This document shows, one piece after another, positions 1,087 to 60,129 of a DNA stretch of 60,129 bases (position 1 is the first letter of the stretch; each line of letters starts with the position of its first letter). The DNA comes from Gekko japonicus (Eukaryota): the NCBI RefSeq assembly GCF_001447785.1, contig NW_015167075.1, forward strand, positions 656,632 to 716,760, given 5' to 3'. Both the position numbers and the translations under genes were made by a program. The notes beneath the pieces were generated by a model. It ran no database searches, was not told the origin of the DNA, and saw nothing but the letters and a program-made list of their open reading frames with translations.

Positions 1087-2010
1087 TACAGACTGGCCCC
1101 AATGCGTTCCTCACAACGGCCTGTGAAGGGTTTCCTTCCTTTAAACCAAGCTTTGTTTCCCACTGTAGCGAAACGAGCGCCAGTTTACAACTCAGCTGTT
1201 CGCCTCCCACCCTTGTCTCGTGGGTGTATCTCACTCCTTAAGTTCGCTGCCACCACTCACTTAATTGTCACTGCCATTTTAAAGGGACACTGAGACCCCT
1301 CTGGCTGAATCTCCCTATTTGGGGGATCCCTGGAAAGTTGGCAGCCCAAGGGTCTAGTCTTTCTTTGCTTCCCTGGGCTACCCCCTCCCTTTGTTATTGT
1401 GCAGAGCAGGGGAGACTTATGTGGTCATAGCACAACACAGATTATTAGCCCAAATAAAAGATTTTATCTAAGTATTTACACAGTTATGGAGCACACACAC
1501 ACACTAAATGAATAAGGCACAGCTGTAGGCACACACACACAGTAAATGAATAAGGCACAGTAAGGACACACTTTGAACCCACAGGAGCATAAATCTACAG
1601 GGGTTATATGTAGGGTTGCCATGCCCATCTTCCACCACCAGCGGGGGACTTGGGGGGCGTTCCTGGAAGGGGTGGGGCATCCCCAACATGATGACGTCAC
1701 GTTGGGGACATCTGCCGCCCCCCCCACCCGGCCGTGTGCTGGATCTCCAGAAACAGCAGTTCCCTGCACTTAAAGTAGCCGGCAGCCGGCGTTTCCCCTT
1801 TAAGAGAAGCTGTGTTTCCCTTTTAAGAACGAAGCTGGCTTTTCCCTGCAAGCTTGCGGAGTTCGCGCTTGGGATGAAACATGGGTTGCACACCCTTAAA
1901 GGGAGACAGATGGGTGGCTGTGGGTGTTGGGGGTGGGGCTTCCCCCGCCAGCCATCTGGCCAGCAGCGGGTACAACCTCCCCAAAACGGGGGACACCTGG
2001 CAAACCGGGG

Positions 2011-2269
2011 TGTTGTGTCCGCTGACCGCCACCAGGGGCCAGCGAACAATGTAACAATGGGGACTAGGCTCCTGGTCTCTCCACTGGGGAACCAATGGGA
2101 CCGTGGTGGGAGATTTAAACCCTCCAACGAGACCTAGGGGTGTGTCCCCAGGTATGTATATAGTTGTCCTGCCAGCCGTTTGTCTTTGTATTGTTGTGTA
2201 CCAGTAAACCATGCTGATCACTACATCAGTCTCGGTGGTTTCTTCATGCGTCTAACCCACTACACTTCA
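2011..2269 (+). repeat. 5' LTR (259 bp)
   Basis: tgttgtgtcc...tacacttca; direct repeat of 6414-6690 with 7 substitutions by manual count and an 18-bp length difference. Confidence 0.95.
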
Positions 2270-2270
2270 G

Positions 2271-2288
2271 TGGCGACGAAGGTGGGAT
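2271..2288 (+). promoter_or_regulatory. Primer binding site, tRNA-Ser(GCU)
   Basis: TGGCGACGAAGGTGGGAT lies 1 nt after the LTR and is complementary to the vertebrate tRNA-Ser(GCU) 3' end as recalled (...AUCCCACCUUCGUCGCCA). Confidence 0.8.
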
Positions 2289-2365
2289 CCCGCTGAGCGA
2301 GCCAGCCGGGCTGTCGGGACTCGGTGAAGGAAGACAACGCATCGTTACCTACGCTCCACCAACCA

Positions 2366-3290
2366 ATGAGCAACGAGCAAGCTGCTTCCCAGCCACAGCT
2401 GCAACCGACCAGCACAATGGCCCTTGCTGCGGGATCAGGGCTGGTACCGCCTTTTGATACAGCCCGTCCAAAGCAATGGGGAGCCTGGATCACCGGCCTG
2501 GAGCAAGTACTGATATTCTACCAGGTGACGGACAAGGCCAGGAAGAGGGGTCTCCTACTCGGGTCGTGTGGACCCGCCATCGTAGAGCTGGCCCAACACC
2601 TACTCTCCCCTAAGAAGCTCAGAGACTGCACTTTTCAGGAAATCGTCTCAGCAGTCCAGAACCACTACACGCCTAAACCTTCGGAGATGACGTGCCACGT
2701 GGTATTTCACCAGTGGAGTCAGAAAGACCGCAAAACGGCCGCTGAGTTTCTTGCCGAACTCCGCCACTTGGCATCCGAGTGCAAATTCGACGCACACCTG
2801 GATCTGGCCCTGTGAGACCGGTTCATCATGGGACTGCAGGAGGAGAAGCTGTGGCGACACATAATGGAGGTTGAAAAGGTGACCATAGCGTCAGCCATCG
2901 CCACCACCACCGCGTGGGAGAAGTCGCACCCTGCAGTCGCCTCCACGCATCAGGCCGCCAGCACGTCGCCAGCAGACTTCGACGGCGCGGAGGTCCACTG
3001 CACCCAAGCACTGCACCGCACCCCAGCAGCGAACACGAGCTCCGCCTGCCAGCATCCCAGCGCGGCAACCCCAGTGTGTGCCAGTTTCGGGGACCGGCAC
3101 GACAGGAAGACCTGCAGGTTCCAAGACATTGTTTGTCGGAACTGCGGGCACACTGGCCACATCACCCGGGCCTGTTGCTCCAAAGCCTCCAGCCGGGCCC
3201 AGCCACCGTGTCACAGAGCAGAAGCCCATTTCGAGGACGGCGCAGAGGCCGAGGACCTTTATCACCTCGCACATAAAGCTGACAAGGTAT
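2366..3290 (+). pseudogene. gag: Gypsy gag (in-frame TGA at 2813-2815, two zinc knuckles)
   Basis: ORFs 2324-2815 and 2828-3736 are in one frame: 'PFDTARPKQWGAWI', 'EFLAELRHLASECKF', knuckles CASFGDRHDRKTC (one Cys replaced by F) and CRNCGHTGHITRAC. Confidence 0.9.
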
Positions 3291-6200
3291 TGCAACTCCC
3301 CGGGAAATCGCCCATCCCTAAGATTTTGGCCACAGTTACAATCGAGGGGTCCCCTTGCCTTATAGAAATAGACTCAGGCTCCGCAGCCTCCATAATTTCC
3401 GAGGCCACGCTGAAATGCTTATGCCCAAAGGGGGGACCCCGCTTGCGCCCAGCCCAGGTGACGCTCATGGATTTTCAGAGAAACAGGGTGCCGATAAAAG
3501 GGGTCGGGACTTTCAGAGTGCAATATGGGAAGTTCCAGAGCCAGTTGGACTTGATTGTGGTCGAGGCGACCTGGTCAGCTTCCTGGGTCGGGCCTGGTTT
3601 GAACCCCTGGGGATTTTGGTCGAGGGGGTCCAGCTGTGTACAACCCAAGATTTCAAGGGGATATGCCGGGAGTTTCCTGCAGGTTTTGATGACTCCCTGG
3701 GCTGATATACGGGCCCACCGGTGTCCCTGCGTCTAGACCCCAAGATGGCCCCCATCCGTATGCATGCCAGGCCGGTTCTGTTGTCGGTCAAGCCTAAAAT
3801 AGACGCGGAACTGGATCGCCTAGTAGCTCAAGGCATCCTGGAACCGGTCTGCCACACGGCGTGGGAGACCCCAGTAGTTGTGGTTGAAAAAACGAATGGG
3901 GCGGTCCGCATCTGCGCGGACTATAAATGTACGCTGAATAAGGCGCTACAGGACCACGCATACCCGGTTCCTGTGGTTAGCCATGTACTGGCCACCTTGG
4001 GAGGGGCAAAGACTTTGGCAAACTGGATCTCGCCAAGGCTTACCAGCAGTTGCCAGTGGACGAGGCGACTGCTGAAGCGCAAACTATTGTGACCCACCGG
4101 GGGGCATTCCTTGTCAAGAGATTGCAATTCAGGGTGAGCATGGCACCGGGGCTGTTCCAACAACTGATGGACTCTCTCCTCAAAGGAATCCCCGGCGTCA
4201 CCCCGTTTTTTTATGATGTGATGATCGCCGCCGCCTCCCCGGCCGACTTTGCAGACCGCCTCCGCACCGTGCTCTGCCGTTTCCAGGATGCTGGACTAAA
4301 GGTTAAACTGGAGAAATGTCAGCTGGGGGTGCCGTCAGTGGACTTTCTGGGGTTCACGGTGGATGCGGAGGGCCTCCACCCAACCCAGGACAAAATAAAG
4401 GCAATCGTGGAGGCTCCGCTGCCAAAGTCCAAGGCTGAACTGCAGGCCTTCTTAGGGATTCTCAATTTCTACCACGCCTTTCTTCCCCACAAGGCGGCGG
4501 TAGCTGAACCCCTTCACCGCTTATTGGATAAACAGGCCCTGTGGGTGTGGAGCCCCCGCCTGGCTGCCGCATTCAGGAACATGAAAGAACTGTTGATCTC
4601 CAACTCGGTCCTGGCCCACTTCAATGAGGCACTGCCGGTGGTTTTGGCCTGCGATGCCTCACCCTATGGAGTCGGGGCTGTGCTGGCACATCGTCTCCCT
4701 GATGGACAGGAGGTCCCAGTCGCGTATTACTCACGCACTCTATCTGCGGCTGAGCGGAACTACGCCCAGATAGATCGCAAGGGACTGGCAATTGTGGCCG
4801 GGGTCAAGAAGTTCCACAACTTTGTCTACGGCCGGCCGTTCACCATTGCCAGAGACCACCGCCTGCTCCTCACTCTTTTTGTGCCCGATCGCCGTACGCC
4901 GCAAGTCCTCTCCCTGCAGGTCTTGCGGTGGTCCATTTTCCTTGTGGGCTACGACTACCAGCTGCAACACCGCCCAGGGAAAGCGATGGGCCACGCCGAC
5001 GCCCTTAGCCGACTTCCCCTGCCAGACGTGGTTGAGGACGCGGCCCCTGCGCACCGGGTCCTTTAGCTGGAGGGCCTGCCGGATACTCCGTTGTCCGCCA
5101 CTCGGCTTGGGACCCCGTCATATTCCGGGTTCTGGGCTGGGTGGTGAGGGGGTGGCCTGCAAAGGCGGAAGGCCCCGAGTTTACGGCATTGGCTCGCCGG
5201 GAGGAGTTATCCGCCCACAAAGGCTGTCTGCTGTGGGGAGACAGGGTCATGGTCCCCAGCGCCCTCCGACAAAAGGTCCTACAGGAGCTACGTTTGGTGG
5301 CCAGGCATCGACGCAGAGGTGGAAGCGTGGATGAAACGTTGTCCAACCTGCCAAGCTGTTTGACCCAGCCCACCGGGCGCGCCGTCTTAGACATGGGAAT
5401 CCACACGAACCCCGTGGTCCCAGCTCCACATAGATTTTGCTGGACCATTTCATGGACTGTTATTTCTGGTTACGGTGGATTCCTACACCAAGTGGCTGGA
5501 GATAAGCCCCATTTCCGCAACATCGGCAAAGGCCACCATCCGCGCACTCCGGAAGATCTTCGCCACCCACGGCCTGCCAGACACCATCGTCTCGGACAAC
5601 GGGATGGCATTTACGTCGGAGGAATTCCAGCAGTTCCTCAGCAACAACCTAATAAGACACACCAGGTCGGCACCCTTCCACCCCGCGACAAACGGCCAAG
5701 CAGAACGCATGGTAAGGACAGCGAAGGAAGCATTAAGCTGACTGATGGAAGGCGACTGGGAATGTTGCATCGCCCATTTCCTCTTAACACAGCGAACGAC
5801 ACCAAACCCGGTAAGCGGCCGCTGCCCAGCGGAACTGTTAATGGGGTGAAGGCCAACAATCCTGCTAGACCGCCTGCACCCTGATCGGGCCCCAGAGCAA
5901 CGGAACCCCTCCAAGCAGCGGGAAGCACCTCGCGGGTTCTTCCCAGAGGACCCGGTATTTGCCAGGAACTTCGGTAGAGGCCTGGAATGGATCGCAGGCC
6001 GCATCATTCATCCCACAGGCACCGTCATGTATGAGGTGTCCACAGAATGTGGGCACGTCCTGCGGCGACATATAGATCAACTCCGCCGGAGCATGCTACC
6101 GGAACACCCGAACGGGAAGGGACCAGGGCAACAAGCAGATCCAGAGGTGAGCCCACCAAACGCCCCGGTGCAGGACTTCCCCACGGAAGAGTGGCCGAGC

Positions 6201-6386
6201 CAGTCCACAGTTCCACCGGTGGCTGCCAAGGACGCCCCGACAGCCGACGCTCCGGAATCAGAGGGACCTACATCAACCACGCAACCCAGCACAGGGGATG
6301 GGGCCCCTGGGGTCCCCGTACCGGCTCCCCGACAGTCAACTAGAGTACGGCAGTCCCCGTTGTACTTAAAGGACTATGTGACCTAG
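3291..6386 (+). pseudogene. pol: Gypsy pol (PR, RT, RNase H, IN), frameshifted
   Basis: Protease EIDSGSA; RT 'WETPVVVV', 'RICADYK', 'PFFYDV' (catalytic DD damaged); RNase H 'ACDASPYG', 'HADALSRL'; integrase 'HIDFAGP', 'VSDNG', 'HPATNGQAERMV'. Confidence 0.93.
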
Positions 6387-6402
6387 GGTGGGTCCGAACT
6401 AT

Positions 6403-6413
6403 GGGGGGAGGGA
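6403..6413 (+). promoter_or_regulatory. Polypurine tract
   Basis: GGGGGGAGGGA immediately before the 3' LTR. Confidence 0.85.
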
Positions 6414-6690
6414 TGTTGTGTCCGCTGACTGCCACCAGGGGCCAGCGAACACTCCAGAGCTTGACTCTGGAGTAACAATGGGGACTAGGCTCCTGGTCTC
6501 TCCACTGGGGAACCAATGGGACCGTGGCGGGAGATTTAAACCCTCCAACGGGACCTAGGGGTGTGTCCCCAGGTATGTATATAGTTGGCCTGCCGGCCGT
6601 TTGTCTTTGTCTTGTTGTGTACCAGTAAACCATGCTGATCACTACATCAGTCTCAGTGGTTTCTTCATGCGTCTAACCCACTACACTTCA
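6414..6690 (+). repeat. 3' LTR (277 bp)
   Basis: Direct repeat of 2011-2269, TG...CA termini. Confidence 0.95.
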
Positions 6691-37706: not shown

Positions 37707-39125
37707 CATGAAGAACATAAGAACATAAGAGATGCCAATGTTGGATCAGGCCAAAGGCCCATCCATTCCAACACTCTGTATCACACAGTGGCCAGAAATA
37801 CCAGTGCCATCAGGAGGTCCACCAGTGGGGCCAGGACATTAGAAGCCATCCCACTGTTGACCCCCCCCCCAAGCACCAAGATGACAGAGCATCACTTGCC
37901 CCAGAGTCCCTATCTATACCTTGTGGCTAATAGCCACTGATGGACCTCTGCTCCATATGCTTATCTAATTCCCTTTTGAAGCCGTCCATGCTTGTAGCTG
38001 CCACCACTTCCTGTGGCAGTGAATTCCAAGTGTTAATCACTCTTTGGGTGAAGAAGTACTTCCTTTTATCCGTTCTAACCCGACCGCTCAGCAATTTCAT
38101 GGAGTGCCCACGGGTTCTTGTATTGTGAGAAAGGGAGAAAAGTACCTCTTTCTCTACCTGCTCTTTCCCATGCATAATCTTATAAACCTCGATCATGTCA
38201 CCCCTCAGTCGTCTTTTCTCCAAGCTAAAGAGCCCTAAGCGCCTTAACCGTTCCTCATAGGGAAAGTGTTCCAACCCTTTTATCATTCGAGTTGCCCTTT
38301 TCTGCACTTTTTCCAAAGCTATAATATCCTTTTTAAGGTGTGGTGCCCAGAACTGCACACAGTATTCCAAATGAGGTCTCACCATTGATTTATATAGGGG
38401 CATTATTATATTGGCTGATCTGTTTTCAATACCCTTCCTAATAATCCCCAGCATAGCATTGGCCTTCTTTATTGCAGTCACACACTGTCTCGACATTTTC
38501 AGTGAGTTATCTACTACAACTCCAAGATCTCTCTCTTGATCTGTCTCTGCCAGTTCAGACCCCATCAATGTGTATTTATATTTAGGATTTTTGGCTCCAA
38601 TGTGCATCACCTTGCACTTGGCCACATTGAACCCCATTTGCCATGTTGACGCCCACTTGCCCATCTTTGACAGATCCCTTTGGAGTGCCTCACAATCCTC
38701 ACTGGTTTTCACCACCCTGAACAACTTCGTATCATCCGCAGATTTAGCCACTTCACTGCTTACTCCCAACTCCAAATCATTAATGAACAAGTTAAAAAGC
38801 AGTGGACCAAGTACTGATCCCTGTGGTACCCCACTGCTTACCCCCCTCCACTGGGAGAACTGCCCATTTATACTCACTCTCTGTTTTCTATTAATTAGCC
38901 AGTTTTTGATCCATAAAAGGACTTGTCCTTTTATCCCATGATTTTTGAGCTTGCTTAGGAGCCTTTGATGAGGAACTTTATCAAAAGCTTTCTGGAAGTC
39001 AAGGTAAACAATATCTATTGGATCCCCCTTGTCCACATGTTTGTTCACCCCCTCAAAGAACATTAACAGGTTAGTGAGACAAGATCTTCCCTTACAGAAC
39101 CCATGCTGAGTTTGCCTCAATAGGT
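37707..39125 (-). mobile_element. 5'-truncated CR1 LINE
   Basis: (TTCTTATG)n tail at 37707-37730, 3' UTR, then the ORF2 RT region. Confidence 0.95.
37927..39125 (-). CDS. CR1 ORF2 C-terminal part (reverse transcriptase), open but N-truncated
   Basis: QHGFCKGRSCLTNL, YLDFQKAFDKVPH, SGVPQGSVLGP, KSADDTK, RPHLEYCVQFW; no stop in about 400 codons. Confidence 0.9.
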
Positions 39126-39593
39126 TTTTGTGAAGAGCAGAAAGCAAGTTTTAAATGGCCAAGCCATTTAACCTCCTGTTTTCTGCTCTTCATGAACCAC
39201 CATGAACTGCATCAAAGTTTGTGGAAATTTGTGGCAGTTCCAATGTTCATGAACATAGTCTTATGAACCATGAACTGGCCAAGGTTCATCACAAACTTTA
39301 GTTTGTGAGCCAGCTCGTGCCTATGCTTAATCCGTTTAGTCTTTGTACCATTGTTGTTCTGCCAGAATTCACAGTTCTCTATCAGTGTTTCAAGGTCATG
39401 ATTTAGTTGTGGACACCAAATACGTAGTGTTGCATGTTCCATGCATTTGGTAATTCTTTGAGAACCATTATGAAGTTTTCCTAGTATTTCTTGTCTTATT
39501 TCTACAGATATGATTCCATCACCATAAAGAATTAAGCCTTGCAGCTCTGTAGGACTCCCTCATTCTACAAAGAATGACTTGCACTCAGCTGGT

Positions 39594-42837: not shown

Positions 42838-45800
42838 CCAGTCGGAGATTATCTTGCAGGGCAAAGTATGCAGTCTAAAAACATGCTGGAGAAACGCTTT
42901 GGCCAGGACACGGGCCGTAGGCATAGTCTTAAACGGGACAAAATGGGCTTGCTTGGTAAAAAGATCCACAATTACCTATATAATCGTTTTCCCCCTACTG
43001 GGGGGCAAGTCAGTGATGAAATCCATGGAGATCACCTCCCATGGTCGTCCCGTGGTGGGTGGGGGCCGCAACAATCCTGGCAGTTTACCTGGGTGGGGCT
43101 TGCACATGATGCATGTCTGGCATGACTGAACAAACAGGGGAAGATCCTTCCTCATCCTGGGCCACCAGAACTGATGCTGTAGTAAATGCAACGACTTCAC
43201 AAAGCCCAGGTGCCCCGCCAGTTTGCTGCCATGCACTACAGACATAACCTCCCCTCACAAGGCAGCCAGAACAAACAGTTTGTATCCATTATACCAACAG
43301 CTGTTTGCCCTCTCTTCAATCTCCCCCTCCCTTTCCAGTTCTTTCCAATCAGTGTCCGAGAGGGTGGAGGCGAACTTCATTTCCCAACCCCCCTCTACAA
43401 CAGGGGGTGAGGCTTTTGCCTGACTGCAAGTTAAGACCGCCCCCCCAACTGGGAGGGAGTGAACATTGAGTCCAGCATGCCCTCACGCTGACTGTTATGT
43501 TGAGGTAGGCAGGACAATACATCTGCCAGTGAGTTGGCTTTGCCCTGGAAATGGTGGAGGGTGAAATTGAATTTGGAAAAGAAATCCGGCCACCGCAACT
43601 GCTTAGTGTTAAGGTTGCGGGGCGTCTGCAATACCTCCAAGTTCTTATGATTGGTCCAGACTTCAAAAGGCACCCATGCTCCCTCCAACCAGTGATGCCA
43701 GGTCGAGAGGACCAACTTAATTGCCCCTGCTTCTTTGTCCCACACTGACCAATTGCACTCAGTGTCATTGAACGTACGGGAGACATAGGCGAGGGGGTGC
43801 AATCTCCCATCCCCCCCCTTCTTGCAAGATGGTGCCACCCATGGCAACATCTGACACATCAACTTGCACAATATTTTTTTTATTTTTGTCGAGGTGCACT
43901 AAAATGGGTTCAGACATGAACAGAGCCTTCAAACTATTGAACGCCTCCTGACATTTGATCGACCACATCAGCTTGGCACCCAACTGGTCCCTTTCCTTTC
44001 ATTTTTAACAAATCTGTGAGCGGTAAGCTCACCTGAGCAAAATTGGCGAGAGAAATTCTGTAAAAATTGGCGAATCTGAGGAACACTTGGAGCTGCCTCC
44101 GAGTGCGAGGCGGTTCCCACCCTAATACATCCCGCACCTTGGTTGGGTCCATGTCCAACCCCCTATGGGAGATGTGATAGCCAAGGAAATCAATCTCAGT
44201 ACAATGGAACTCGCACTTTGAGAGTTTGGCAAACAGTTTGTGCTTGTGCAACATGCACAATACTTCACACATCAATTTCACATGGGATGATTTCTCGGGG
44301 GCGTACAGTAAGATATCATCTAGATAAACAATAACTTCTTTGAACAGGTGCTTGTGCAACACTTCATTGATAAGGTTCATGAAGACCCCAGGAGCCCCTT
44401 GCAGACCGAAGGGCATCACCTGGTACTCGAACTGTTCCAGTGAAGTATTAATCAGGAGAGCCAGTTTGGTCTAGTGGTTAAGTGTGCGGACTCTAATCTG
44501 GGAGAACCAGGTTTGATTCCCCACTCCTCCATTTGCACCTGCTGATGTGACCTTGGGTCAGTCACAAGCTCTGGCACAGCTGTCCTTGAAAAAGAGCAGT
44601 TTGTGTCAAAGTTCTCTCAGCCCCACCCACCTCACAGGGTGTCTGTTGTGGGGAGGGGAAGGGAAAGGAGTTTGTAAGCCGCTCTGAGACTCCAAGTGAA
44701 GGGCGCGGTATAAATCCAATCTCTTCTTCTTCTTCTTCAAAACACAGTCTTATACTTGTCTCCCTCCTTAATCCTCACCCTGAAATACGCATCCCGGAGA
44801 TCAAGCTTGGAAAATATTTTCCCCTTGGCCGCCTCAGCCAAGAGGTTCTTGATGAGAGGGAGGGGATTAGCGTTAATAGTGGAGACTGCATTCAAGCCTC
44901 TATAGTCAGTGCAGAATCTCAACCCCCCGTCCTTTTTCTTCCTGAAAAGTACGGGGGCCGCAAACAGGAATGACGCAGGGCGAATGAAACCCCGAGCCAA
45001 ATTCTTGTCAATAAACTTTCGCAACTCCTCTTTCTCACTGGGGCTCATCGCGTACAGTTTCCTTTTAGGCAACTTGTGCCCAGGGATCAGTTCTATAGCA
45101 CAACTCGTGTGCCAGTGGGGTGGCAATTCATCAGCTTCTTCTTCCTCAAAAACCCTAGCCAAGTCCCGATACTCTGGGGGAATGGTATCAAACTCCTCCC
45201 TGGCTAGGCACACTCGTACTGGTTCATCTAAAGGTTCACCCTGCAGACCACTCATAAGCCCAACACTTAGGAGAGATTAATTGTACCTTGCCCTCATCCC
45301 ACAGGATGTACGGATCATGGTCGTGTAGCCACAGGCTGCCCAGCACCAGAGGGAAGCATGCTGCTTGGGTGATGACAAATGGTCGGTGTTCTCAACGGCC
45401 TCCCATCCCAAACCGTAAAGGCACAGTCTCATACTAGCAAGGTTCTTTCATAGTCGACCCCTCCATCTGGGTAAACACAATGGGATCTTGGAGTTTCACT
45501 ACCTTGGCTCCCAGCCCTGTAACCAGGGAAGGGTTGATTAAGTCTCATCCACACCCAGAGTCTATCAAACCCCATACCCGGACATGAGTCCTGAGTTTGG
45601 GATCCATTTTAGTCACAGTCACAAAGAAGAGGGGGGGGATAATTGTTCACCGTCTTAGGCACCTCGGGAGTAGGGACCTGCTGCTCTGTGCCGCTCACAG
45701 CAGGACCTGCCCTTCTCCTGCCAACTCGTCTTCTTCAACCCTACTCGTGAGTAGCTCCTCCACAGGAACTTCAGGTTGCAGTGCCCGTTGGAACTTCAGC

Positions 45801-47280
45801 CAGGCCACACTCTTCCGTGCTGGGGTGTCCACCTGCTTCTTCTCTGGCTCCTTCCTGGGTACCATCGGGGCTCCCCCTCCAGGGCAGGTGGCAGCAAAGT
45901 GACTCACTTCTCCACATCTCAGGTACAAACCTTGCTTCATGCGCTGGTCCTGCAAGCCCCCTTTGGGTTTAGGTGTCTTGGGTTTGACCGCTGGCAGTCC
46001 GATCTTTCCCAGGGTGGTTGTGTTGTCTATGAGGATGGTCCTCATGTGGTTCTCCATGTCAACCACTTCCCGCATCCAGGCATGGAGGAACACCGGTTGA
46101 ACACTATGCAGGACCATCTCGCGAATCTCAGGGTGCAGACTTAGCCGGTACTGCTCCACCATCCCACCATTCAGCCAGCACTGGATCTTCACGGTTTGCT
46201 TTCTGAACACCTCAGTGTATTTACGCACCATCTTCTTTCCTTGCTTAAAGGTGCATAAGTAGGCACGCATTTGTCCTCATACGCGCTCGGAGAGACCACA
46301 TAAATTAATCCACTCGCTTGAGTTTGGGGCCCTCCAAATTATGAAGGCTCATGTATCAGTCCGCTGCCTCATCATGTAGACATGAGGCAATGTAGTCCAT
46401 GTGCCTCTCTTAGGTGGGAAGCAGATGTCCCCAGTGAGTGATAAACTTTTCCGCTCACACCACGAAGAACGCCAGCTTCTCAGGCGTCCCATCAAATGTG
46501 GCATCCAATAGCTCAGTTGGCTTATGTACCTCTGGCCCATCTCAGGGTCGAGGCTCTGGCGCTTGGTCTCAGGGGGGGAAGGGGGGGCTGGCAGAGCCAG
46601 TTGCCCTGGAATCCCCAGTACTGCCGGTGCTCCTGTGGCGGGTTGCGCTGGTTGCTGCCATTGCTGGAGATGAATTTTATGCTGCACCACCTTGGCTACA
46701 AGTTTGGGGCCCTCCAAATTATGAAGGCTCATGTATCAGTCCGCTGCCTCATCATGTAGACATGAGGCAATGTAGTCCATGTGCCTCTCTTAGGTGGGAA
46801 GCAGATGTCCCCAGTGAGTGATAAACTTTTCCACTCACACCATTCCTTGTCTTCGCCCAGCTCGTGATGCACCAGCTCTCCCCTCTCTCAGGGCTGTGGC
46901 CCTCAAGGCTGGTCATAGCAGCTCACTTGGCACGGCCCCGGAGTAAGCATCCACATCTCCTGGGTGTCTGCCTTGAACTTGCTCCATCGTGGACCACGGA
47001 GGGTCGTAGTCACAAGTGGCCTCACACACACCCACTGGCCCCAGTGGGAAGACGTCTGAATCCCCAGTACTGCCGGTGCTCCTGTGGTGGGTTGTGCCGG
47101 TTGCTGCCATTGCTGGAGATGAATTTCATGCTGCACCACCTTGGCTACAATCTGTGCGATGCTCAGAAGCAATTCTTCCACTCATTTCATCATGTCTCCA
47201 TAGGATATTTCCAGTAACTCCAACTGGAGGCCCACGAAATCCTTGTCTTCGCCCAGCTCGTGATGCACCGGCTCTCCCCG
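42838..47280 (-). mobile_element. Decayed Ty3/Gypsy internal region (sushi/chromovirus-like), truncated in the integrase; LTRs not identified
   Basis: gag 'KQGKKMVRKY', knuckle LRCGEVSHFAATC; PR GLIDSG; RT 'APVLFRKKKDGGLRFCTDYRGLN', 'SKLDLRDAY', 'MPFGL', YLDD; RNase H QVDVSD; IN 'HGSKLAGH...CQTC', 'WEVISMDFI'. Confidence 0.92.
44454..44738 (+). mobile_element. tRNA/CORE SINE inserted in the Gypsy RT
   Basis: agccagtttggtctagtggttaag...ggtttgattccc...(TCT)n tail; splits the RT between KTVF and NTSLEQFEY. Confidence 0.9.
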
Positions 47281-47282
47281 TT

Positions 47283-47714
47283 CTATAGTAAAATCAAACC
47301 ACACAGCGCTTCATAAGAAGTATTCTGTTTATTGGTAGTTCATAACTATGACACTTGAACATTTTTTTGTCAGAAATGGACCAAAGCAGCAGGGCACCCA
47401 AAGTTATAGTAGTTTCAAAGGACCCCTCATTACAAGCATAAGCCAATAAGCATTGTGCATGGTCCCGCATGCAAGAGAGGAAAGTGATTGGGGGGAAAGT
47501 GAGCCGTTCATTCTCAGCAGGTCAGGAGCAGCTGGAAGCCACAGCTTAGAGGGAGCATTGAAAGTGAGTGGGGGAAAAGTGAGCCATTCATTCTCAGCAG
47601 GTCAGGAGCAGCTGGAAGCCCAAGGTCAAAAAAGCATACACAGATAACAACCCAGACAGTAGACATCGTTAGTGTACCAGGAAGGAGGATCACTCCACAC
47701 ACATTCCAAAGACA
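47283..47714 (-). repeat. LTR-like fragment with internal 50-bp direct repeat
   Basis: tttatt at about 47327; aaagtgagcc.ttcattctcagcaggtcaggagcagctggaagcc at about 47495 and about 47576. Confidence 0.4.
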
Positions 47715-47722
47715 TGGCAGTG

Positions 47723-48600
47723 TTAACTGCCAGTCTTCTGTTTCTGCTGGGCTCTTTGCATGTTGTCTGCTGTAGCCACTCTCAGTTCCTGCAAGTTCTC
47801 CTGTATCTTCTGAAGATAGGTCACTACTACACCTCTGCTTTCAATATTCTCTCGTCCAGTCCATTCTTCTTTAAGGATGGGCATAGGCCCTCTTGTCTGA
47901 CACCCAAACAGTGGCTTGAAGGGACTAAAACTGGAACTCTGCTGTGGCACTTCACGATAACCAAACAGCAGATGTTGTAGTTGCTGATCCCAGTTTTTAG
48001 GCTGTTTTACTGTGTAGGTCTTCAGCATGTGGTTCGAGGTGCTGTTAAACCTTTCATTTAGACCATTACTTGTAGGTGGTAAATTGTGGTGGTAAGGTGC
48101 TTGATCCCACAAACCGGCAACTGTTCCTTCATCACCTGGGACATGAATGAGGTTCCCAAATCCATGACCATTTCTTGTGGAAAACCTAGCCTGGTGAACA
48201 CTGTCAGTAGGGCTTCTGCTACATTTTTTGTTTCAAATTTCCTTAAAGGTATTGCTTCTGGGAACTTCATTCATAGTCTGCTGTGGTCAAAATATATTTA
48301 TTCTGCAGCCGGGTTGCTCTGGTGATTGACCCTACAACGTCCATTCCACTTTTACTGAACGCTTCAGACACAAGTGGAACAGTTGTAAAAATCCTTGTGT
48401 TTTGTCTTGCCTTGCCCACTGGCTGACATACTTCACAAAACTTGTAAAATGCCCTGATGTCTTTTCCCATACTGGGCCAAAAGAATCTTGCTTGCAACCT
48501 ATCTCTGGTCTTGTTGATCCCTAGATGTACTGACATAGGTGTATCATGGGCTAACTGTAAAAGTTGCATTCTATATTTTCTGGGGATCAGCAGGTGTTTG
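47723..48600 (-). pseudogene. Gmr1-like integrase, frameshifted
   Basis: ORFs 48267-48569, 48058-48270 and 47723-48112 together give HHCC and D,D,E regions. Confidence 0.88.
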
Positions 48601-49974
48601 TGCTTCTCTCAGATAGCAGCACATTTATGCCTCATAGATACAGTTTCTACACAGTCTCTATTCTAGGATCTTGAACAGATAAGAACATTCAATTGCCACT
48701 TCCTGAGACATTTCAGCCCTCTGCCACAAATCCCCTCCTCATCCTTAACCTCCCTCATACTCTCAGAAGAATACAGGGGGGGGGAGTAGACAGGACAGGG
48801 GATCCCACCCAGAAATTTTATCCTTTTCATTCTTTTTAGTTTCTGTTTTGAATTCCATTAGGCAACGAGGCAGCAGCATATTGGGATTCTTCTGGCCCGA
48901 GCCTTCTGTCATTAATATAGATATTTCATTTCTGTCTGATCAATGGGTCAAAACTACCAAATTTTGGCCAATGAAATCCTCCTAATTTATACTGTGGCTA
49001 CACAAAAACACAGAAATTTACCATCATTTCTTTATTTAAATTCTTAGTCTATGAATGCTCCTCCCAGTATTTTAACATAAGTCCAGAGGACTGTCTGGGG
49101 GAATCTGAGGAGTCCCCCTGACTTCCCCAGGCCCCTTTTTGCTAGAACACTAATTTCCCATTGCCATTGCCTTACCTTTTGCCTAATGGGACATCCCAGT
49201 TCCACAACCCGGTGTGAGCTTGTCTCTTCCTGGGCAGACCCCTCCTGCCAGGATTGTCACAGACTGACTTGGAATCAACAGTCTCAGGACTCCAGTCGTC
49301 CCCGGTCCTGGCCAATGGAGTTCAACAGACTGTGAAAATTCACGAGGTGCACCTTCTGATGGTCACTCGCTAGATGGGTCGGCGATGGATCAGATAATCC
49401 CGGACAAGCCCCCAGCTGTGGGAAACAAAAAATAATCCACCTTCCCCAGCCCTTTCAGGGAGGAAAACAAAATTCAGTCAGTCTGGAGTATCCTTTAGTT
49501 GGACTTTATTGACAATAAAAGGAATCAAAGAAGACGAATTTCAAATGGCTTAATTTCCCCCTACCCCCCTGGTTGCAAGTTCCCTCCTCCTTTCCCCTCT
49601 TGGCTTACATACACGGAGGTTACAGCCTCCATGACCACCTAGTACATATTTGCTTATTGTCATGTCCCCCCTCCCAAACATGCATTGCATGTATATTACA
49701 ATTAGCTACTGTACTATGCAGGGTGTGTTAGATAATATGTATCAGCTCGTTGCGCGTGCGTACTGTTAGTGAACCCATTCCTTCTCCTCTTATCTTATCT
49801 TTTTACCTTCTACCAGTTACCTGTCTTTCTAGACAGACTGTAACTCTGTAGTTGTCCAGCAACTTACAACTGCTTTAGCTCACTTTTAAAGAATTCACTT
49901 CTCTCAATTCCCCAATAAAATTTCCCAATTCTCCCCACACTCCCATGACCCATTTCCCCTGGATTCCTTTATAT

Positions 49975-51315
49975 TTAATTGGGAACTGCCAAGTTCACTT
50001 CACACTCTGGGACACTGATTCCCTTAATCCTGTATGTTCTTCCTGGCAAGTATTGTTCTTTCTTTACCAAGTTAGGCTTTATTAAGGTGACTTCTGCCCC
50101 CGTATCTCTCCTGCCTATCACTTCTTCATCGTTTGTGTCTACAGACTCCAAATATTCCCTGTTTAAGTCCTCCTGCATTTTCCATACTTGTAAAACTATA
50201 CCTGGTCTCTCTGTTTGGGCTTCTTCTTGTACAGGATCTGGTGGGAGTTTTGTGATTGCTTCTGTCCTTATAACTAAATTGACCCTCTTGGCTGAAATTT
50301 CCTGTTTTCCTTTCTCTAACTTTGGGCAGCGGGCTTTCATGTGTCCCTCTTCCTGGCAAATAACACACTATCCCTCTGTTTCTATATAACTCTGGAGTGT
50401 TCCACCTTGCAGGGTTGGTTTTAGATGACTAGGTTTTCTCTGAGGTGCCACAAACTTTATTTTTCTTGGGGGGTAGGAAAAGAGATTTTCCCAAGTCCCC
50501 TTCTACCTCATCTAATAAAGTGGTGGCTTCATCTACCAGTTTTTAATCTTTTATCCCTCAGAAACCATCTAAGTTGTGTGGGAACTTGTCTGTAAAACTG
50601 ATCTAAGTCTATGAATTGCTTCAGTTCTTCAAATATCTGTACTTTGCTTCCCTCAACCCATCTGGTTAAGGCTCTGTCCAAATAACAACCTAGCTGAGCA
50701 TATGTTTCACCCTACTTCCTTTTAATTTCTCTGAAATCTTTTCTACTTTGTTCAGCAGTCAGCCCAAATCTAACCCTGACCCCCTGTTTAAAAAGCAAAT
50801 ATTCAAGGTCTCCTCATCCCTCATCTCAGAATAAACTTCACCCAGTCCTCCACAAATTTGTGGGTGCAAATAAATCATTCTGTCCTCATCTGGGACCCCA
50901 GAATCTCAATGTTCCTTCAAAATGAAGAGAAGGCCTCCACATTGCCCCCCTTTTGATAATGTGGACATTTCTTTTGTTCCACTGAAGTACTTTCCCTGCC
51001 TCTCTGTGGAAGCTGCAATTCTGCCCTTAACTGGATTTTCTTCATCTTCATATTATACATTTCTTTTTCATGTTCCCTCTTGGTTTCCCTCTCTTGCTGT
51101 GCCATTTTAGTCTTTTCTGCCTCAGTTCTAGCTAATTCAAGCTGTTGTTCTTTATTTGCCTGAATTTTGGCTAATTCTTTTTCTTTTTCCGCCTCTATTT
51201 CTGCCAGTTCAATTTTCATTCTCATAATTTCTACCTTCTGACTAGGATTTTCCTCAGTGGATGTTTCCTGTCCCTCGCTTCCATGTGCCACCCTAGGTCT
51301 GTGTGGTGCTGCCAT
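49975..51315 (-). pseudogene. gag: Gmr1-like gag and protease
   Basis: Coiled coil, 'YQKGGNVEAF', frameshifted zinc knuckle (CY..GH.KARCP) and DTGA protease motif. Confidence 0.75.
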
Positions 51316-51651
51316 TTCTGACAGGAATTCTGTGGTAATTCCTCACAAATTTATAAAACATTTTCTTATAATTGTTTGTATTTATGGTGGGACAAACTAG
51401 TTGGCGGTGGCACAGAGAATTTACAGTAAGATCTGAACAGAACTGCCTTGTCCCCAGCTCACTGTCCACCCAGCAGCTCGAAAGCTTCAGTGAGTAGATA
51501 AAATGGGTACCACTCCTTAGGGAGGGTGGGCACACTTCACCCCTCCGGTGGAGGAGGTGTTAGCCGGCGAAACGGAATGTCCAGCTCGGAAACTCGGAAG
51601 CCTGGAAAAGATGGGCCAATCTGGCCAGGCAGTGGCAGTGCGGCACTGCAA

Positions 51652-51775: not shown

Positions 51776-51799
51776 TGGGTTTTATTCTTGTGTCACAAT

Positions 51800-51809
51800 G
51801 CTGCCACCA
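51800..51809 (-). promoter_or_regulatory. Partial primer binding site, tRNA-Leu
   Basis: Minus strand TGGTGGCAGC, 2 nt after the LTR end ...ctgtcata; complementary to tRNA-Leu 3' end ...GCUGCCACCA. Confidence 0.65.
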
Positions 51810-52080
51810 AATATGACAGCCCCGTCCACTTCCCTCCTTCAGAGACAAGATTTTCCCTCTGTTTTTCTTTCCCCTTACTGACTGAGCTGCCCTATGAAGA
51901 ACTCTGGCCTGTCACAGTATGATATTTTGGCTCAGTCCAGGAATCTGAGGGAAGCATCAGGATTCCCCCTTAAATTAAACAACTTAAATGGCACTCAAGG
52001 AGTTTTGAAATTCAAAAATAACAAAATATTTTATTTAACATAGAGGGGAAAGGTCAGGTGAAATCAGTGGTTGAAATTTC

Positions 52081-54241
52081 AGACTTCTGGCGGTGTGGCG
52101 CTGCGTCTGGGTGCGTTTCCTCAGAGCTCCCGAGGACGCCCATCTCCCGTGCGCTTCCTCGGAGCCCCCCGAAGTTCGGGGGAGCTCTGCTTGCTTCTCC
52201 TGGGGGGAGAGCAAGTGCAGGAGGCTTGGCCGGGGCCCCCCGTTTCCATGGCAAGGGCGGGGGCGAGTCTGGCTTGCCCCGAAGCTGGAGCGTCGGGTAG
52301 CAGGAAACATGGCTGCCGTGTTTTCCGATAGCAGCAGCCAGCCGCGTTTTTAAACCCACTATGTCTTTGATGCACGGGTGTGTGGGCACATCACAACTGG
52401 TGAGTCAGTTACAGACCCTCCTCCTCCGAATTTGAAGGCAAAATAGACGGACCCCCTGTGAGTATCTCCCGTTGTATAACGAAGCGGCCGTGGAGAGTTT
52501 AAGAGTCCCGAAAGAGACGAAAAGCGACTGGGGGATGTGTATATTACGTCCGTTTAACGATAGACAGTACTAACTTTATTAAAGTGATTTATGGACTGTG
52601 GAATGTTGTGTTGACGACTAAAGGAAACATACTGAGTTGGGAGTAATAGAGAGTGATATGCAAAAATGGTGGCGGCGGCCGAGGAAGCCATCAGGGGCGC
52701 AGCCAGTGATTTACTCCTTGTTGAACTTATGGGAGAACGATTTCAAAAAGAGCTAGCTAATATAGCGAGACAAGCCTGTGAAAAGGCGGTGAAACAAGCT
52801 TGTAAGGCAGCTTGCGAGGACTTTTTTAAAAACCCTCCAGGTATAAAAACAGAAGAAAAGGGAAGTAGAGAACAAAAGTTAGAAGAGACATGGGCGGCTG
52901 AAGCTCAGGAACAAGGAATTGAGACCCACAATATCTTACATGTGGCCAAAGAAGAAGAATTACAAGAGGTTAACACCCAGGTGTGTGTATTGGAGAACCA
53001 ACAGGAGCCCCAAAAAGAAAAAAGGAAAAGAAGCCTGTTGGAGCTAACTGTTAGGAAAAAGACAATAACAATAAAAGGAAGGAAATCAAGGAAAAGACTG
53101 ATGAGGCTTAACAGCTTTAAACGCCTGAAGGTGACTGTAAAAGGGTCTGAACAAGAACTATGGAAACTTAGGATTCTAGAAAAAGACATACAAGAATTTA
53201 AAAATTTAAGACATCTGGAAGAAAACAGGAGAAATCTAGATAAGAAGCAAATTGAATTCAATGTGATTGTTATGGCTATAATGATGGATATGTATCAGAT
53301 ATAAGCACTGTTACTTATGCCTAAACAGGAATTATGGATGTAATTTGTTAGATCTTAACACTTCCCCCTTTTTTCCGTCTCCAAATCTTTTTGATATGAT
53401 TTAGTTTGACATGGAATTTGCTGGGATGTTAGAAGTATGGAACTTAGTTGTGTTATCAGAATATTGAAGCAAATTTTAAGTCCAATTTCAGTGATGAATC
53501 CCAAAGGTAATAAACAGAAAAGATGGTTGTGAGATGTAAGGTCAACGAAATTTAGAATATGGTGGGTCATCAGAAGCATGATATTTTGTTTGATTTATGA
53601 AAATATGAAAGTGAGATCTAAGATTTGCCTGGAAGGTATGTTATTATGAATTGCCAAGGCAGATACTAAAGGCACTATATAAAATTAACTTGTAGTCTAA
53701 GCTAAGTTGAGCTGAGTCTGATTTGAGAAGTGAGAGAGATAATTGCAAGGATGACAAATTGAGAGGTAGTATGGCTATCGACAGGAGATGTGGTATGACA
53801 TGGTGTGATAAGGTTTGCTATCCTTGCATCGGTTTGTAAGACTTAAACTGACTAACGCAGAATACATGAATCAATCCTCTCAGTAAACCCAAGACTGACA
53901 AGTCTGAGTTAAGGGTACTGATAACTTAGACCCTACTGATGTTTTAGACTCAAGTAATGAGCCAAAGCCGCTTATCTAGAAATGTTAGATAAACAGAGGA
54001 ACAATAAACTAAAAAAAATAATAATCAAAGGTATTAGTTTAAATAATTTTTTGAGTTCAATGGGGGAGCATGATTTTTGATTCTTGATATATAGTTTATA
54101 CATGGTATATTTACTTGATATTCTGATGATGTCCCAATCAGAGTTGAAAGGTTTTTGCTGTTTGTCTATGTTTCATGTTTGTCTGTTTTCTTTTATTGTA
54201 AAACTCAATAAAAATTTATTAAAAAAGAAAAAGAAAAAAAA
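52081..54241 (+). mobile_element. Full-length non-autonomous L1-like element with a single ORF (HAL1-like)
   Basis: 21-bp TSD gaaatcagtggttgaaatttc (52060-52080 and 54242-54262), CpG-rich 5' UTR starting agacttctgg, AATAAA at 54207-54212, A-rich tail 54221-54241. Confidence 0.85.
52666..53304 (+). CDS. 212-aa helical, E/K-rich protein, putative L1 ORF1-derived
   Basis: ATG in strong context (aaaATGG), A-rich sense strand, position equivalent to ORF1; no RT or endonuclease motifs. Confidence 0.55.
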   Translation: MVAAAEEAIRGAASDLLLVELMGERFQKELANIARQACEKAVKQACKAACEDFFKNPPGIKTEEKGSREQKLEETWAAEAQEQGIETHNILHVAKEEELQEVNTQVCVLENQQEPQKEKRKRSLLELTVRKKTITIKGRKSRKRLMRLNSFKRLKVTVKGSEQELWKLRILEKDIQEFKNLRHLEENRRNLDKKQIEFNVIVMAIMMDMYQI

Positions 54242-55059
54242 GAAATCAGTGGTTGAAATTTCTGAGGTAAAATCAGTACACACACAGACTTCAGTTCTAA
54301 TATTTCAGGCTAATGATAGTTTCTTAAGCTATTCACAGTTACTTAAAAAAATTATTTTGCAAGGCTTTTGTTTCAGTGTTTTCCAAACACTAGTATCCAA
54401 ATTCCTTTTCTTGAAACACCAGTACTCATCTTGAGTTTTTAACTGACTCTTAAGGTTTCTAAAGACAGTTTCTAACCACATTTCCCACTCTCTCTCTATC
54501 CCCTTTCCTTGGCCGGAATGGGAGTCTCCATCTACCCACCCACTCGTCGTCGTCAACTTTCTCCAGTTCTCCTGTCTGTGTTAAAACTGCTCTCAGTCAG
54601 GGCTGAATTCCAAAATTGTCAGTACTCAACTCTGCCTTGCTAGGGCTGAAATCAGACTGTCAGTACTCAGCTCAGTCAAGGCAGACATTTGACTGATTAT
54701 CTCCTCAGCATGCAGCTTTCAAGACTTTCTCTGCTCAGCCAATGCTAACCAATCAGATTGCTTGGAGCAGCCTGTCACTCAAGGCCCTCTTTTTCTGTGA
54801 AGAATTAACCCTTCACAGTCCTTTAGTCATGTGTACAGCATTTCTAAGCTTCTTAAAAGCACAGTCCATCACAGTAAGGCCTTCAGTTCTCTCTCACACA
54901 CAGGCAGAAGTTTCTAGTAGGGAATCCAAACATAGTATCAAACTTGGTTGCCAAACAACCTTGCCCAAACTAATTTTCTTCTAGGCCTCTAAAAATACAT
55001 TAACTATTTCCAGTCATGAACCACTGCTATTGCACAGCTACTGAGAGCAACACCATTAA

Positions 55060-58397: not shown

Positions 58398-60129
58398 TTT
58401 GTCGTGGTCTCTGTGCTTCACACCAATGGGATCTAGTGCACACGCGCTGGATCGATTGGTGCTGTAGCAACCTCTTTTAACGGATTTTCATGCCCAGCCC
58501 CCTGTGCATGCGCAGGAACCCCACCACGCATGCCCAGAGGGGGTGGGCATGGAAATCCTGCCAGTTCCTTTCTTACCGCTGCGTTGGAAAGACCTTCTTT
58601 CCTTCTTGGTCTGATTGGATCGCTGTTAGCTTCGATTTCAGCTTCGCTCCACAGCTCTTAGGAGTTATTTCCTACTTGTTTTTTGCTTTCAGTTTGTTTT
58701 CAGTTGTTTGTTTGTTTGTTTTAAAAAATTAGCTTCTTCTGAGGGGAAATTACCTCAAGCTGTAGCAACCTCTTTTAACGGATTTTCATGCCCAGCCCCC
58801 TGTGCATGCGCAGGAACCCCACCACGCATGCCCAGAGGGGGTGGGCATGGAAATCCTGCCAGTTCCTTTCTTACCGCTGCGTTGGAAAGACCTTCTTTCC
58901 TTCTTGGTCTGATTGGATCGCTGTTAGCTTCGATTTCAGCTTCGCTCCACAGCTCTTAGGAGTTATTTCCTACTTGTTTTTTGCTTTCAGTTTGTTTTCA
59001 GTTGTTTGTTTGTTTGTTTTAAAAAATTAGCTTCTTCTGAGGGGAAATTACCTCAGGCCTTCGGGCCACACACCCCCCAACCGTTTTTCCGCCACTTCTC
59101 TTCTTATGGAGAAGAATTGGGGATTTTTTAATAGATGCAGACATTGCTTGTAGCAAACTTGCTCCTCTAGATCACCACACCCTCTGCATTTGTTTGTCTT
59201 GGAGAGTCTCAGAAGCCAGAGTCTTGTCATCACTGTGCTCACTTCTCCAACCAGACGAGGAAAAACTGCGCTGTACGCCTTAAAGTAGCGCTGCTTGAAT
59301 CGGCTCTTGTTCCTGTCTCAGCTATGGAGAAGAGACCGTCTACGTCGACAGCTCCGGCCTCGAGACCTGCCTCTGATGTCGACCACCTGATACCAAAGCC
59401 CTCGATATCGAAGACACGATCGTCCGCCTCTACACCAATCAAGAAGACGGCTAAGGCAAGTACGGAGCATAAGTCCGCGAAGAAGGGCACCTCCAAGTCC
59501 CTTAAGGCGGCGAAGAAGGGGAAGGAAGCGGTGCCTGCACTGGGTGATGCCCCTTTGTAGTTAAAATAGATGTCTTTTACTTAAATGTATATCGGAGGCC
59601 CAAGTCCCTCCACCGATACCGACCATCCACATATTGGACTCCCCTGTCCAGCAAATGGAGCCTCCTTACTCCGACATCGACACAGCGGAGCTCCTCAGTC
59701 ACCAAATGGGTGCAGAGCTTTCCCCCGGTCCTTCGACTTCGTCAGCATTGACAGTATCAGAAGCCCCCAACATCGATCCACGTCGGCACCGATACGCCGT
59801 ATCTGACACGCAGCGTCACCCACCACGTCTGCACACTCAGTCTGTCAATATCAAAACCCGTGACTACAGGGACGACTCCCACAGACACACCACTACCTTG
59901 TCTCCAAGACATCCACGGACCAGAAGTCGGTCCCCAAGTCTTCATGCCCCCCCCTCCTTCAATGGCTTGGGATGAAAGACAGTTGCGTTACCTGTATGGG
60001 GCTTATCCTCCATCCATGGCCTGGTTGACTCCTGCGGGCTTTTCTGAGTGGAATCGCTATTTGTCTCGCTCTGCTCATAAGTCTAGGTCTCCTCACAAGT
60101 CAAGGCCTTCAGCATCTCTATCACGTCCT
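58398..60129 (+). mobile_element. DIRS1-like tyrosine-recombinase retrotransposon, 5' part (runs off the window)
   Basis: Start tttgtcgtggtctctgtgcttcacaccaatggg; frameshifted gag zinc finger from 59106 (FFNRCRHC..DHHTLC..CLGESQKPESCHHC) followed by an S/P/R-rich linker. Confidence 0.75.
58461..59055 (+). repeat. Exact 297-bp tandem duplication (period 298)
   Basis: 58461-58757 equals 58759-59055; ORFs 58490-58732 and 58788-59030 translate identically. Confidence 0.95.

Follow-up and report, generated by a model that had tools for sequence, protein, structure and literature searches.

A large family of retroelements without reverse transcriptase in Gekko japonicus, likely copied by L1, keeps a selected protein that is not a recognisable ORF1p

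What is a retroelement that carries a single open reading frame (ORF) of its own, and how was it copied? The question arises from an insert in a window of 60,129 nucleotides of the Gekko japonicus genome (contig NW_015167075.1, positions 656,632 to 716,760, forward strand; coordinates below are those of the window), which the initial annotation read as a half-L1, that is, an element with only the first ORF of L1 that was moved by L1 in trans. We examined the boundaries of the insert, its relatives in the same genome, the selection acting on its ORF, and the identity of the encoded protein.

The structural part of the initial annotation stands in full (Table 1). Two copies of the target-site duplication (TSD) GAAATCAGTGGTTGAAATTTC, identical at 21 of 21 bp, enclose the insert, which starts with AGACTTCTGG, where the majority of its relatives have GGACTTCCGG. 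Its first 350 bp hold 24 CpG dinucleotides (observed/expected ratio of 0.70), confirming the CpG-rich start, and are the part most conserved between subfamilies. The one sense ORF contains the ACEKAVKQACKAACE repeat and is followed by a 3' region of the size first proposed (about 0.9 kb), with a polyadenylation signal, AATAAA, at 54207-54212 and the A tail. Among the ORFs of the insert, none is an endonuclease (EN) or reverse transcriptase (RT) frame.

Table 1. Features of the element and its surroundings in the window
Feature	Coordinates	Strand	Remarks
Left TSD, 21 bp	52060..52080	+	Exact repeat; empty sites
Complete non-autonomous retroelement, 2161 bp	52081..54241	+	
5' UTR, likely internal Pol II promoter	52081..52665	+	585 bp, CpG-rich start
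212-aa ORF, strong Kozak context, purifying selection	52666..53304	+	
N-terminal amphipathic helix, aa 15-56, 4-residue Ala/Cys period, conserved	52708..52833	+	omega ~0.27
Basic segment, predicted disordered, aa 113-165	53002..53160	+	Net charge +8 to +24 in 63/63 open copies
C-terminal motif E[YF]KNxRHxxE..N...K, aa 177-194, conserved	53194..53247	+	omega ~0.26
3' UTR, ~0.94 kb, indel-rich between copies, T-rich end	53305..54220	+	
A tail	54221..54241	+	
Right TSD, 21 bp	54242..54262	+	Exact repeat
Interspersed repeat that received the element	54263..54875	.	Left continuation ~51810-52059

Paralogues of the interrupted host repeat allow the boundaries to be fixed. Five of the 11 that were fetched (L283, L285, L288, L289, and L290, with L288 and L289 overlapping on one contig) have an empty site, in which the left flank joins the right flank with a single copy of the target, and 160 DNA reads, with loose read ends and derived from paralogues, run from 52080 into the sequence 3' of the right TSD. 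Because the paralogues and the reads show the same flank-to-flank junction, the ends of the element are exact; the TSD and the empty sites bear out its retrotransposition as one unit. The read mapping spanned 51780-54190, a range outside which the 3' junction lies. Two DNA runs (at 0.90 and 0.86), perhaps not independent, carry the sequence, and no RNA run is listed as doing so. In three RNA runs, a handful of reads fell on the 5' UTR and on the C-terminal motif; they differ at several positions and are likely from related copies. One thinly read DNA run yielded almost none on the element body; none of these runs is counted as evidence.

Several other repeats were met in the window. Decayed gag/pol-like frames on the minus strand at 43349-51342, with a weak zinc knuckle, are likely two LTR retrotransposons, and the host repeat of the element may be the LTR of the second of them. 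A further LTR retrotransposon, which we take to be Gypsy-like, occupies 2007-6690, with frameshifted gag-pol-like frames and a 90% identical repeat pair (2007-2269 and 6410-6690). An open RT-like frame of 407 aa, presumably CR1-like, lies on the minus strand at 37927-39150, and at 58461-59058 a 300-bp segment is duplicated in tandem with 99.7% identity, which may be an artefact of the assembly.

The element belongs to a large and deeply divided family. Candidates numbered 557, 2625, and 1616 in three protein searches of the source genome, which gave at least 151, 151, and 150 matches, respectively, and because few places are common to the three match lists, as judged by inspection, several hundred loci is a lower bound and not a census. 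The nearest full-length copies found by DNA search of the 2.49-Gb source genome are 92% (L002) and 80% (L003) identical, and many more match at 70-77%; many DNA matches cover the first 270-420 bp only and come from further subfamilies that share this 5' end and whose ORF has diverged. A 24-base 5' pattern has 33 exact occurrences in the source genome, compared to 0 for the control. The proteins diverge to about 20% identity across the family, and to about 22% between subfamilies that share the first 350 bp, and in the family tree, clades nest deeply within one another and terminal branches are short, with many coexisting lineages each keeping its ORF. Thus, the initial annotation was right to suspect a family but underestimated its scale and depth, and the single copy of an L1 with a post-insertion deletion that it had considered as an alternative was not what emerged.

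The copies have TSDs of their own. Sixty-three distinct open ORFs with a start codon, of 170-258 aa, were taken from the fetched loci. Of 60 open-ORF loci, many of which have flanks too short to tell, 22 carry exact TSDs of 13-22 bp; these TSDs enclose 1.77-2.44 kb in 21 cases and 3.4 kb in one, so that the expectation of multiple copies of 2.1-2.2 kb with distinct TSDs was borne out by copies mostly 1.8-2.4 kb long. This count omits L004, L136, and L145, whose TSDs appear to be those of the repeats around them. A looser TSD finder marked 26 of 63 family loci, as against none of 60 chimeric controls. At the 22 target sites, T is found at -2 in 16, a pyrimidine at -1 in 19, and A at +1 to +3 in 17-18. 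The consensus site of the L1 endonuclease is TT/AAAA, and the target sites and TSD lengths of the family appear to fit this enzyme. No in-line ORF2 was detected in 20 loci read for 7 kb downstream, nor in 20 loci read for about 3.5 kb on each side, one of which had unrelated L1 fragments outside its TSDs. The proposal of a multicopy, non-autonomous, likely L1-dependent family therefore holds, and judging from these sequences, copying by L1 ORF2p in trans is very probable. No Rfam match to the element was obtained at E values of up to 1; given the selected ORF and the lack of such a match, where a head derived from a small RNA would be expected, a SINE was ruled out.

Some family copies are found in unusual contexts. 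L015 and L016, two 1.8-kb copies inserted at different sites and 99.7% identical to each other, begin at the 5' end of the element, reach the first codons of the ORF, and then continue into unrelated sequence. Family copies also lie inside ORF1 of a half-L1 (L007) and inside ORF1 of a clade-2 L1 (L070); the latter was considered as the 5' end of an autonomous L1 and rejected, being an insertion into the L1 ORF1.

The ORF of about 200 aa is under purifying selection on amino acids, which settles the proposed comparison of copies in favour of a maintained protein. In four clades of 13, 11, 9, and 14 sequences, codon models give omega values of 0.59, 0.52, 0.44, and 0.48 (2dL relative to omega = 1 of about 38, 38, 55, and 76), and pooled counts give 0.27 and 0.26 for the N-terminal helix and the C-terminal motif, respectively, and 0.58 for the region between them; in frame-blind nearest-pair alignments of equal identity, indels amount to 3.7 per kb in the ORFs versus 18.6 and 16.6 in the UTRs, all of these figures being drawn from the 63 ORFs that were selected for being open. 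Among 49 loci found by DNA alone, the ORF is open in 21, broken, clipped, or gapped in 17, and without an ORF match in 11. Thus, 21 of the 38 loci with any ORF match are open, while simulated neutral decay, before indels, leaves the frame open in 12% of cases at 8% divergence and in 2% at 15%. The start context is likewise uniform: of the 63 ORFs, 62 have a purine at -3 and 61 have G at +4. As a counterpoint, the ORF has an average omega that is no more than moderately low, and its identity between copies is close to that of the UTRs. Nonetheless, omega is below 1 in every clade, and the neutral decay of the ORF contemplated in the initial annotation did not occur.

The protein encoded by this ORF consists of an amphipathic N-terminal helix, an acidic linker (mean net charge of -5.6), a basic segment (+15.4), and a C-terminal helix that carries E[YF]KNxRHxxE. 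Despite overall identity of about 20%, H183 (100% of copies), K179 (98%), E177, R182, E186, and E24 are near invariant. AlphaFold predicts the two helices with confidence, a disordered middle, and no beta-sheet domain, in models of low overall confidence (pLDDT of 55 and 67); a three-copy fold of residues 8-62 scored 0.22 (mark of 0.32). The tails are hydrophobic in only 12 of 63 cases, and the idea of a C-terminal membrane anchor was given up. Neither Foldseek against the PDB nor a PDB sequence search matched the family protein. Pfam gave no match for the window protein and nothing consistent for 54 members, a result that says little because Pfam also misses the true HAL1 ORF1p of this genome; word-index protein searches gave 0, 0, and 1 matches and were insensitive, as most members of the family itself were not recovered.

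A HMMER scan of 1.84 billion representative proteins yielded six matches, all from Gekko. Five are hypothetical proteins of Gekko kuhli, which group in the tree with one clade of Gekko japonicus copies, so that the family is likely older than the split between the two species. The supposition of a lineage-specific family thus agrees with named homologues in two Gekko species only. However, unannotated repeats rarely enter protein databases, and Gekko-only protein matches therefore do not establish absence elsewhere. The sixth match is the first 102 residues of the Gekko japonicus retinoschisin model XP_015273073.1; this fusion of the ORF to retinoschisin is likely a gene-model artefact, although it recalls the L1 ORF1 exon fusions reported in the excerpted text of PMC12129022.

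Is this protein an ORF1p? The comparison was made with reference profiles from the same genome, built from 39 clade-1 ORF1p, 16 clade-2 ORF1p, and 16 ORF1p of a true half-L1 family. With hhalign, the family protein matches these three classes with probabilities of 0.07-0.54%, whereas control comparisons of the ORF1p classes with each other give 96.05% and 99.89%; moreover, the sets of 124 family frames and 245 ORF1p frames have no member in common. Neither an RRM nor a CTD nor a heptad coiled coil was seen in the family protein, in keeping with the initial impression that recognisable RRM and CTD domains are lacking. By these sequence comparisons, the family protein is not a recognisable ORF1p, and its description as ORF1 has to be given up. 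A resemblance of the C-terminal motif to the ORF1p tail was likewise rejected (0.13%). The UTRs lead to the same point: among about 120 sampled L1 and L1-ORF1 loci, the overlap consists of the nine-base start GACTTCCGG and a generic T-rich, AATAAA-containing end, and no L1 was identified as a partner by its UTRs, so that the search for an autonomous L1 with the same 5' or 3' end came back empty and the label half-L1 could not be kept.

One weak hint of a tie to clade-1 ORF1p comes from the N-terminal helix. In the basal clade, the one shared with Gekko kuhli, this helix appears to align in register with the helix that precedes the clade-1 ORF1p coiled coil (pairwise E = 0.0023, above 50 of 50 shuffles), and clade-1 ORF1p helices make up 4 of the top 5 non-family matches in a background of 1.07 million residues (best E = 0.069), with the limits that the matched ORF1p helices are mutually related and that the region was chosen after the match had been seen. 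The match is absent from the reciprocal search and from the whole-family profile. Both helices vary mostly in 4-residue steps; in clade-1 L1 ORF1p (L171-L220 and others), the pre-coiled-coil helix does so in 34 of 37 scored cases. This claim rests on alignment gaps and the ORF1p counts because a regex count of spacings is inflated by the repeat itself. Possibly, the N-terminal helix is the last remnant of a clade-1 L1 ORF1p, a derivation on which we would not insist.

Among known systems, the closest in way of life is mammalian HAL1 (half-L1), which is said to go back to Smit in 1999 and to Bao and Jurka in 2010. HAL1 is defined, in the excerpt of PMC5753468, as a half-L1 that encodes ORF1p without ORF2. 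As described in the available portions of PMC5753468, PMC3627910, and PMC5786205, HAL1 resembles the gecko family in being short, poly(A) tailed, and TSD flanked, with one ORF and no ORF2, and, so far as these portions go, in keeping its coding capacity and likely being moved by L1 ORF2p. It differs in that it encodes ORF1p, whereas the gecko protein has no RRM, CTD, heptad coiled coil, or ORF1p profile match; furthermore, the gecko UTRs match no sampled parent L1, and the protein spans down to about 20% identity. The family is therefore not filed as HAL1: its way of life is HAL1-like, but the defining ORF1p test failed. The source genome also holds a canonical half-L1 family (L251-L280, e.g., L253, G000:C1752) of about 1.8 kb with a full ORF1p and at least 150 matches, all 150 scored at 80% or more. 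Like the family described here, these elements start with GACTTCCGG, have TSDs of 15-21 bp in 7 of 30 loci, and lack an in-line ORF2. Unlike it, they have an ORF1p that matches clade-1 ORF1p at 99.89%; this ORF1p matches the protein of the present family at 0.16%, and the only element-internal DNA match found between the two families is the 3' part of a chimera, L158.

HeT-A and Ag-Sponge, as presented in the excerpted PMC5786205, are likewise protein-coding non-autonomous LINEs whose proteins are thought to multimerise with those of an autonomous partner; unlike the gecko family, they are of Jockey and CR1 descent, and their ORF1p/Gag is recognisable. Lizard clade-1 L1s, in the part of PMC5381506 consulted, have the 5' consensus GACTTCCGG, which is the 5' terminus of the family and also occurs in L114 and L209 of the source genome, as well as a T-rich 3' end with AATAAA, an A-rich ORF, and an N-terminal helix in 4-residue steps; however, they are autonomous, 6-7 kb long, and encode full ORF1p and ORF2p, and their UTRs cannot be aligned to those of the family. 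No published description of the family was found in the literature searched, which includes the excerpts of PMC5203782 and PMC5381603, and it may be contained in gecko supplement repeat libraries, in Repbase, or in Dfam; according to the same portion of PMC5381603, about half of the repeats in geckos were unclassified. There is a fair chance that the family, with its HAL1-like way of life and its different protein, is a new kind.

On balance, we favour the view that this family of RT-less retroelements is large and old, is still diversifying, and is likely copied by L1 ORF2p, with a selected non-ORF1p protein that likely acts in cis. That the protein serves its own template is probable, and our best single guess is an RNA-binding adaptor that docks its own RNA on the L1 particle. 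In such a scheme, Pol II would transcribe the element from the CpG-rich 5' UTR, the protein would be translated from the conserved Kozak ATG, and the new protein would bind, via its basic segment, the RNA that encoded it; one or both conserved helices would dock this RNA on the L1 ribonucleoprotein, and ORF2p would then prime on the A tail at a TT/AAAA nick. Given cis action, many coexisting lineages would each keep their own ORF. In the available part of a preprint (bioRxiv 10.1101/2024.05.03.592410), the ORF1mneoI construct requires both functional ORF1p in cis and ORF2p in trans; proteins of non-autonomous LINEs in general likely multimerise with those of the autonomous partner (PMC5786205, in excerpt), and HAL1 coding capacity is maintained in the long term (PMC3627910, in excerpt). 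Against the scheme stand the 8 ATGs that lie upstream of the gecko ORF in the 5' UTR.

Rearranged copies bear on the same scheme. L158 is TSD flanked and joins a family 5' UTR and ORF to the end of ORF1 and the 3' UTR from a HAL1-like element (about 72%), likely by a template switch; such a chimera is expected if the RNAs of the family and of the HAL1-like element meet the same machinery. L068 (378 bp), L069 (1.34 kb), and L062 (about 0.48 kb) are internally deleted, with a TSD and an A tail, and are candidate SINE-like offspring; L068 and L069 break at about the same position in the 5' UTR, where L074 also ends. From such TSD-bearing copies with a missing or clipped ORF, it follows either that copies can move without a strict requirement for the protein in cis or that the deletions arose during insertion.

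Other explanations must be weighed against a cis adaptor. The protein could be a nuclear counter-defence or promoter factor that keeps the 5' UTR of its own subfamily unsilenced and does not join the L1 particle. A nuclear signal or a DNA-binding tract could reside in the basic segment, an arms race would fit the fast divergence and the many coexisting lineages, and short ORF-less derivatives can move; yet selection on single lineages holds a diffusible factor poorly unless it is sequence specific, the first 350 bp are common to subfamilies with such different proteins, and Foldseek against the PDB, Pfam, and the PDB sequence search found no known DNA-binding fold, which makes this role rather unlikely. 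Alternatively, the ORF may be kept mainly so that the RNA is translated, for stability, export, or access to ribosomes that make ORF2p, with little regard to the product. Near-invariant residues at such low identity, the low omega of the motifs, and the conserved charge pattern render this unlikely, even though strong selection against frameshifts, the conserved Kozak context, and a predicted disordered middle region with an omega of 0.58 are what it would produce.

Two further alternatives concern the origin of the family. If it were a HAL1-type derivative of an extinct or unsampled autonomous LINE, the ORF would be the ordinary first ORF of that lineage, which would account for the L1-type 5' start and 3' end and for the N-terminal helix of the basal clade, in register with clade-1 ORF1p and with the same 4-residue steps. 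This is quite unlikely, since RRM and CTD are conserved in L1 ORF1p of all vertebrates examined in the available portion of PMC5381506, whereas the model of the family protein has no beta-sheet domain, and a linked RT was seen in 0 of 40 long loci; the first ORFs of Tx1, L2, CR1, and RTE were compared through Pfam, the database that overlooks HAL1 ORF1p in this genome. An origin of the copies from a gecko host gene, as its processed pseudogenes or retrogenes, is very improbable. An A tail, TSDs, and a single ORF also mark retrocopies, but the nested tree with short end branches forms no star around one parent, omega is below 1 throughout, the copies start at an L1-type terminus, and no homologue outside Gekko is present among the 1.84 billion representatives. 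Nor did a match to a spliced host mRNA, envisaged at the outset, turn up, as no intron-bearing parent gene was seen among the fetched loci, with 150 scored candidates per genome search.

The cis adaptor thus remains our preferred reading. Its fullest form, an L1 parasite that has replaced ORF1p with a small cis adaptor of its own and has undergone a gecko radiation with SINE-like deletion derivatives, is an attractive possibility that we would put somewhat below an even chance. Whereas HAL1, HeT-A, and Ag-Sponge, as far as the consulted excerpts describe them, keep a recognisable ORF1p, this gecko family of hundreds of loci keeps a different, selected protein. The family also explains unnamed gecko gene models, including the one fused to retinoschisin. 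If the protein is indeed an adaptor, an RNA would overcome the cis preference of L1 with a minimal protein of two helices and a basic tail, and the many lineages of the family would offer naturally occurring variants with which to map the tasks that a cis-acting protein must perform.
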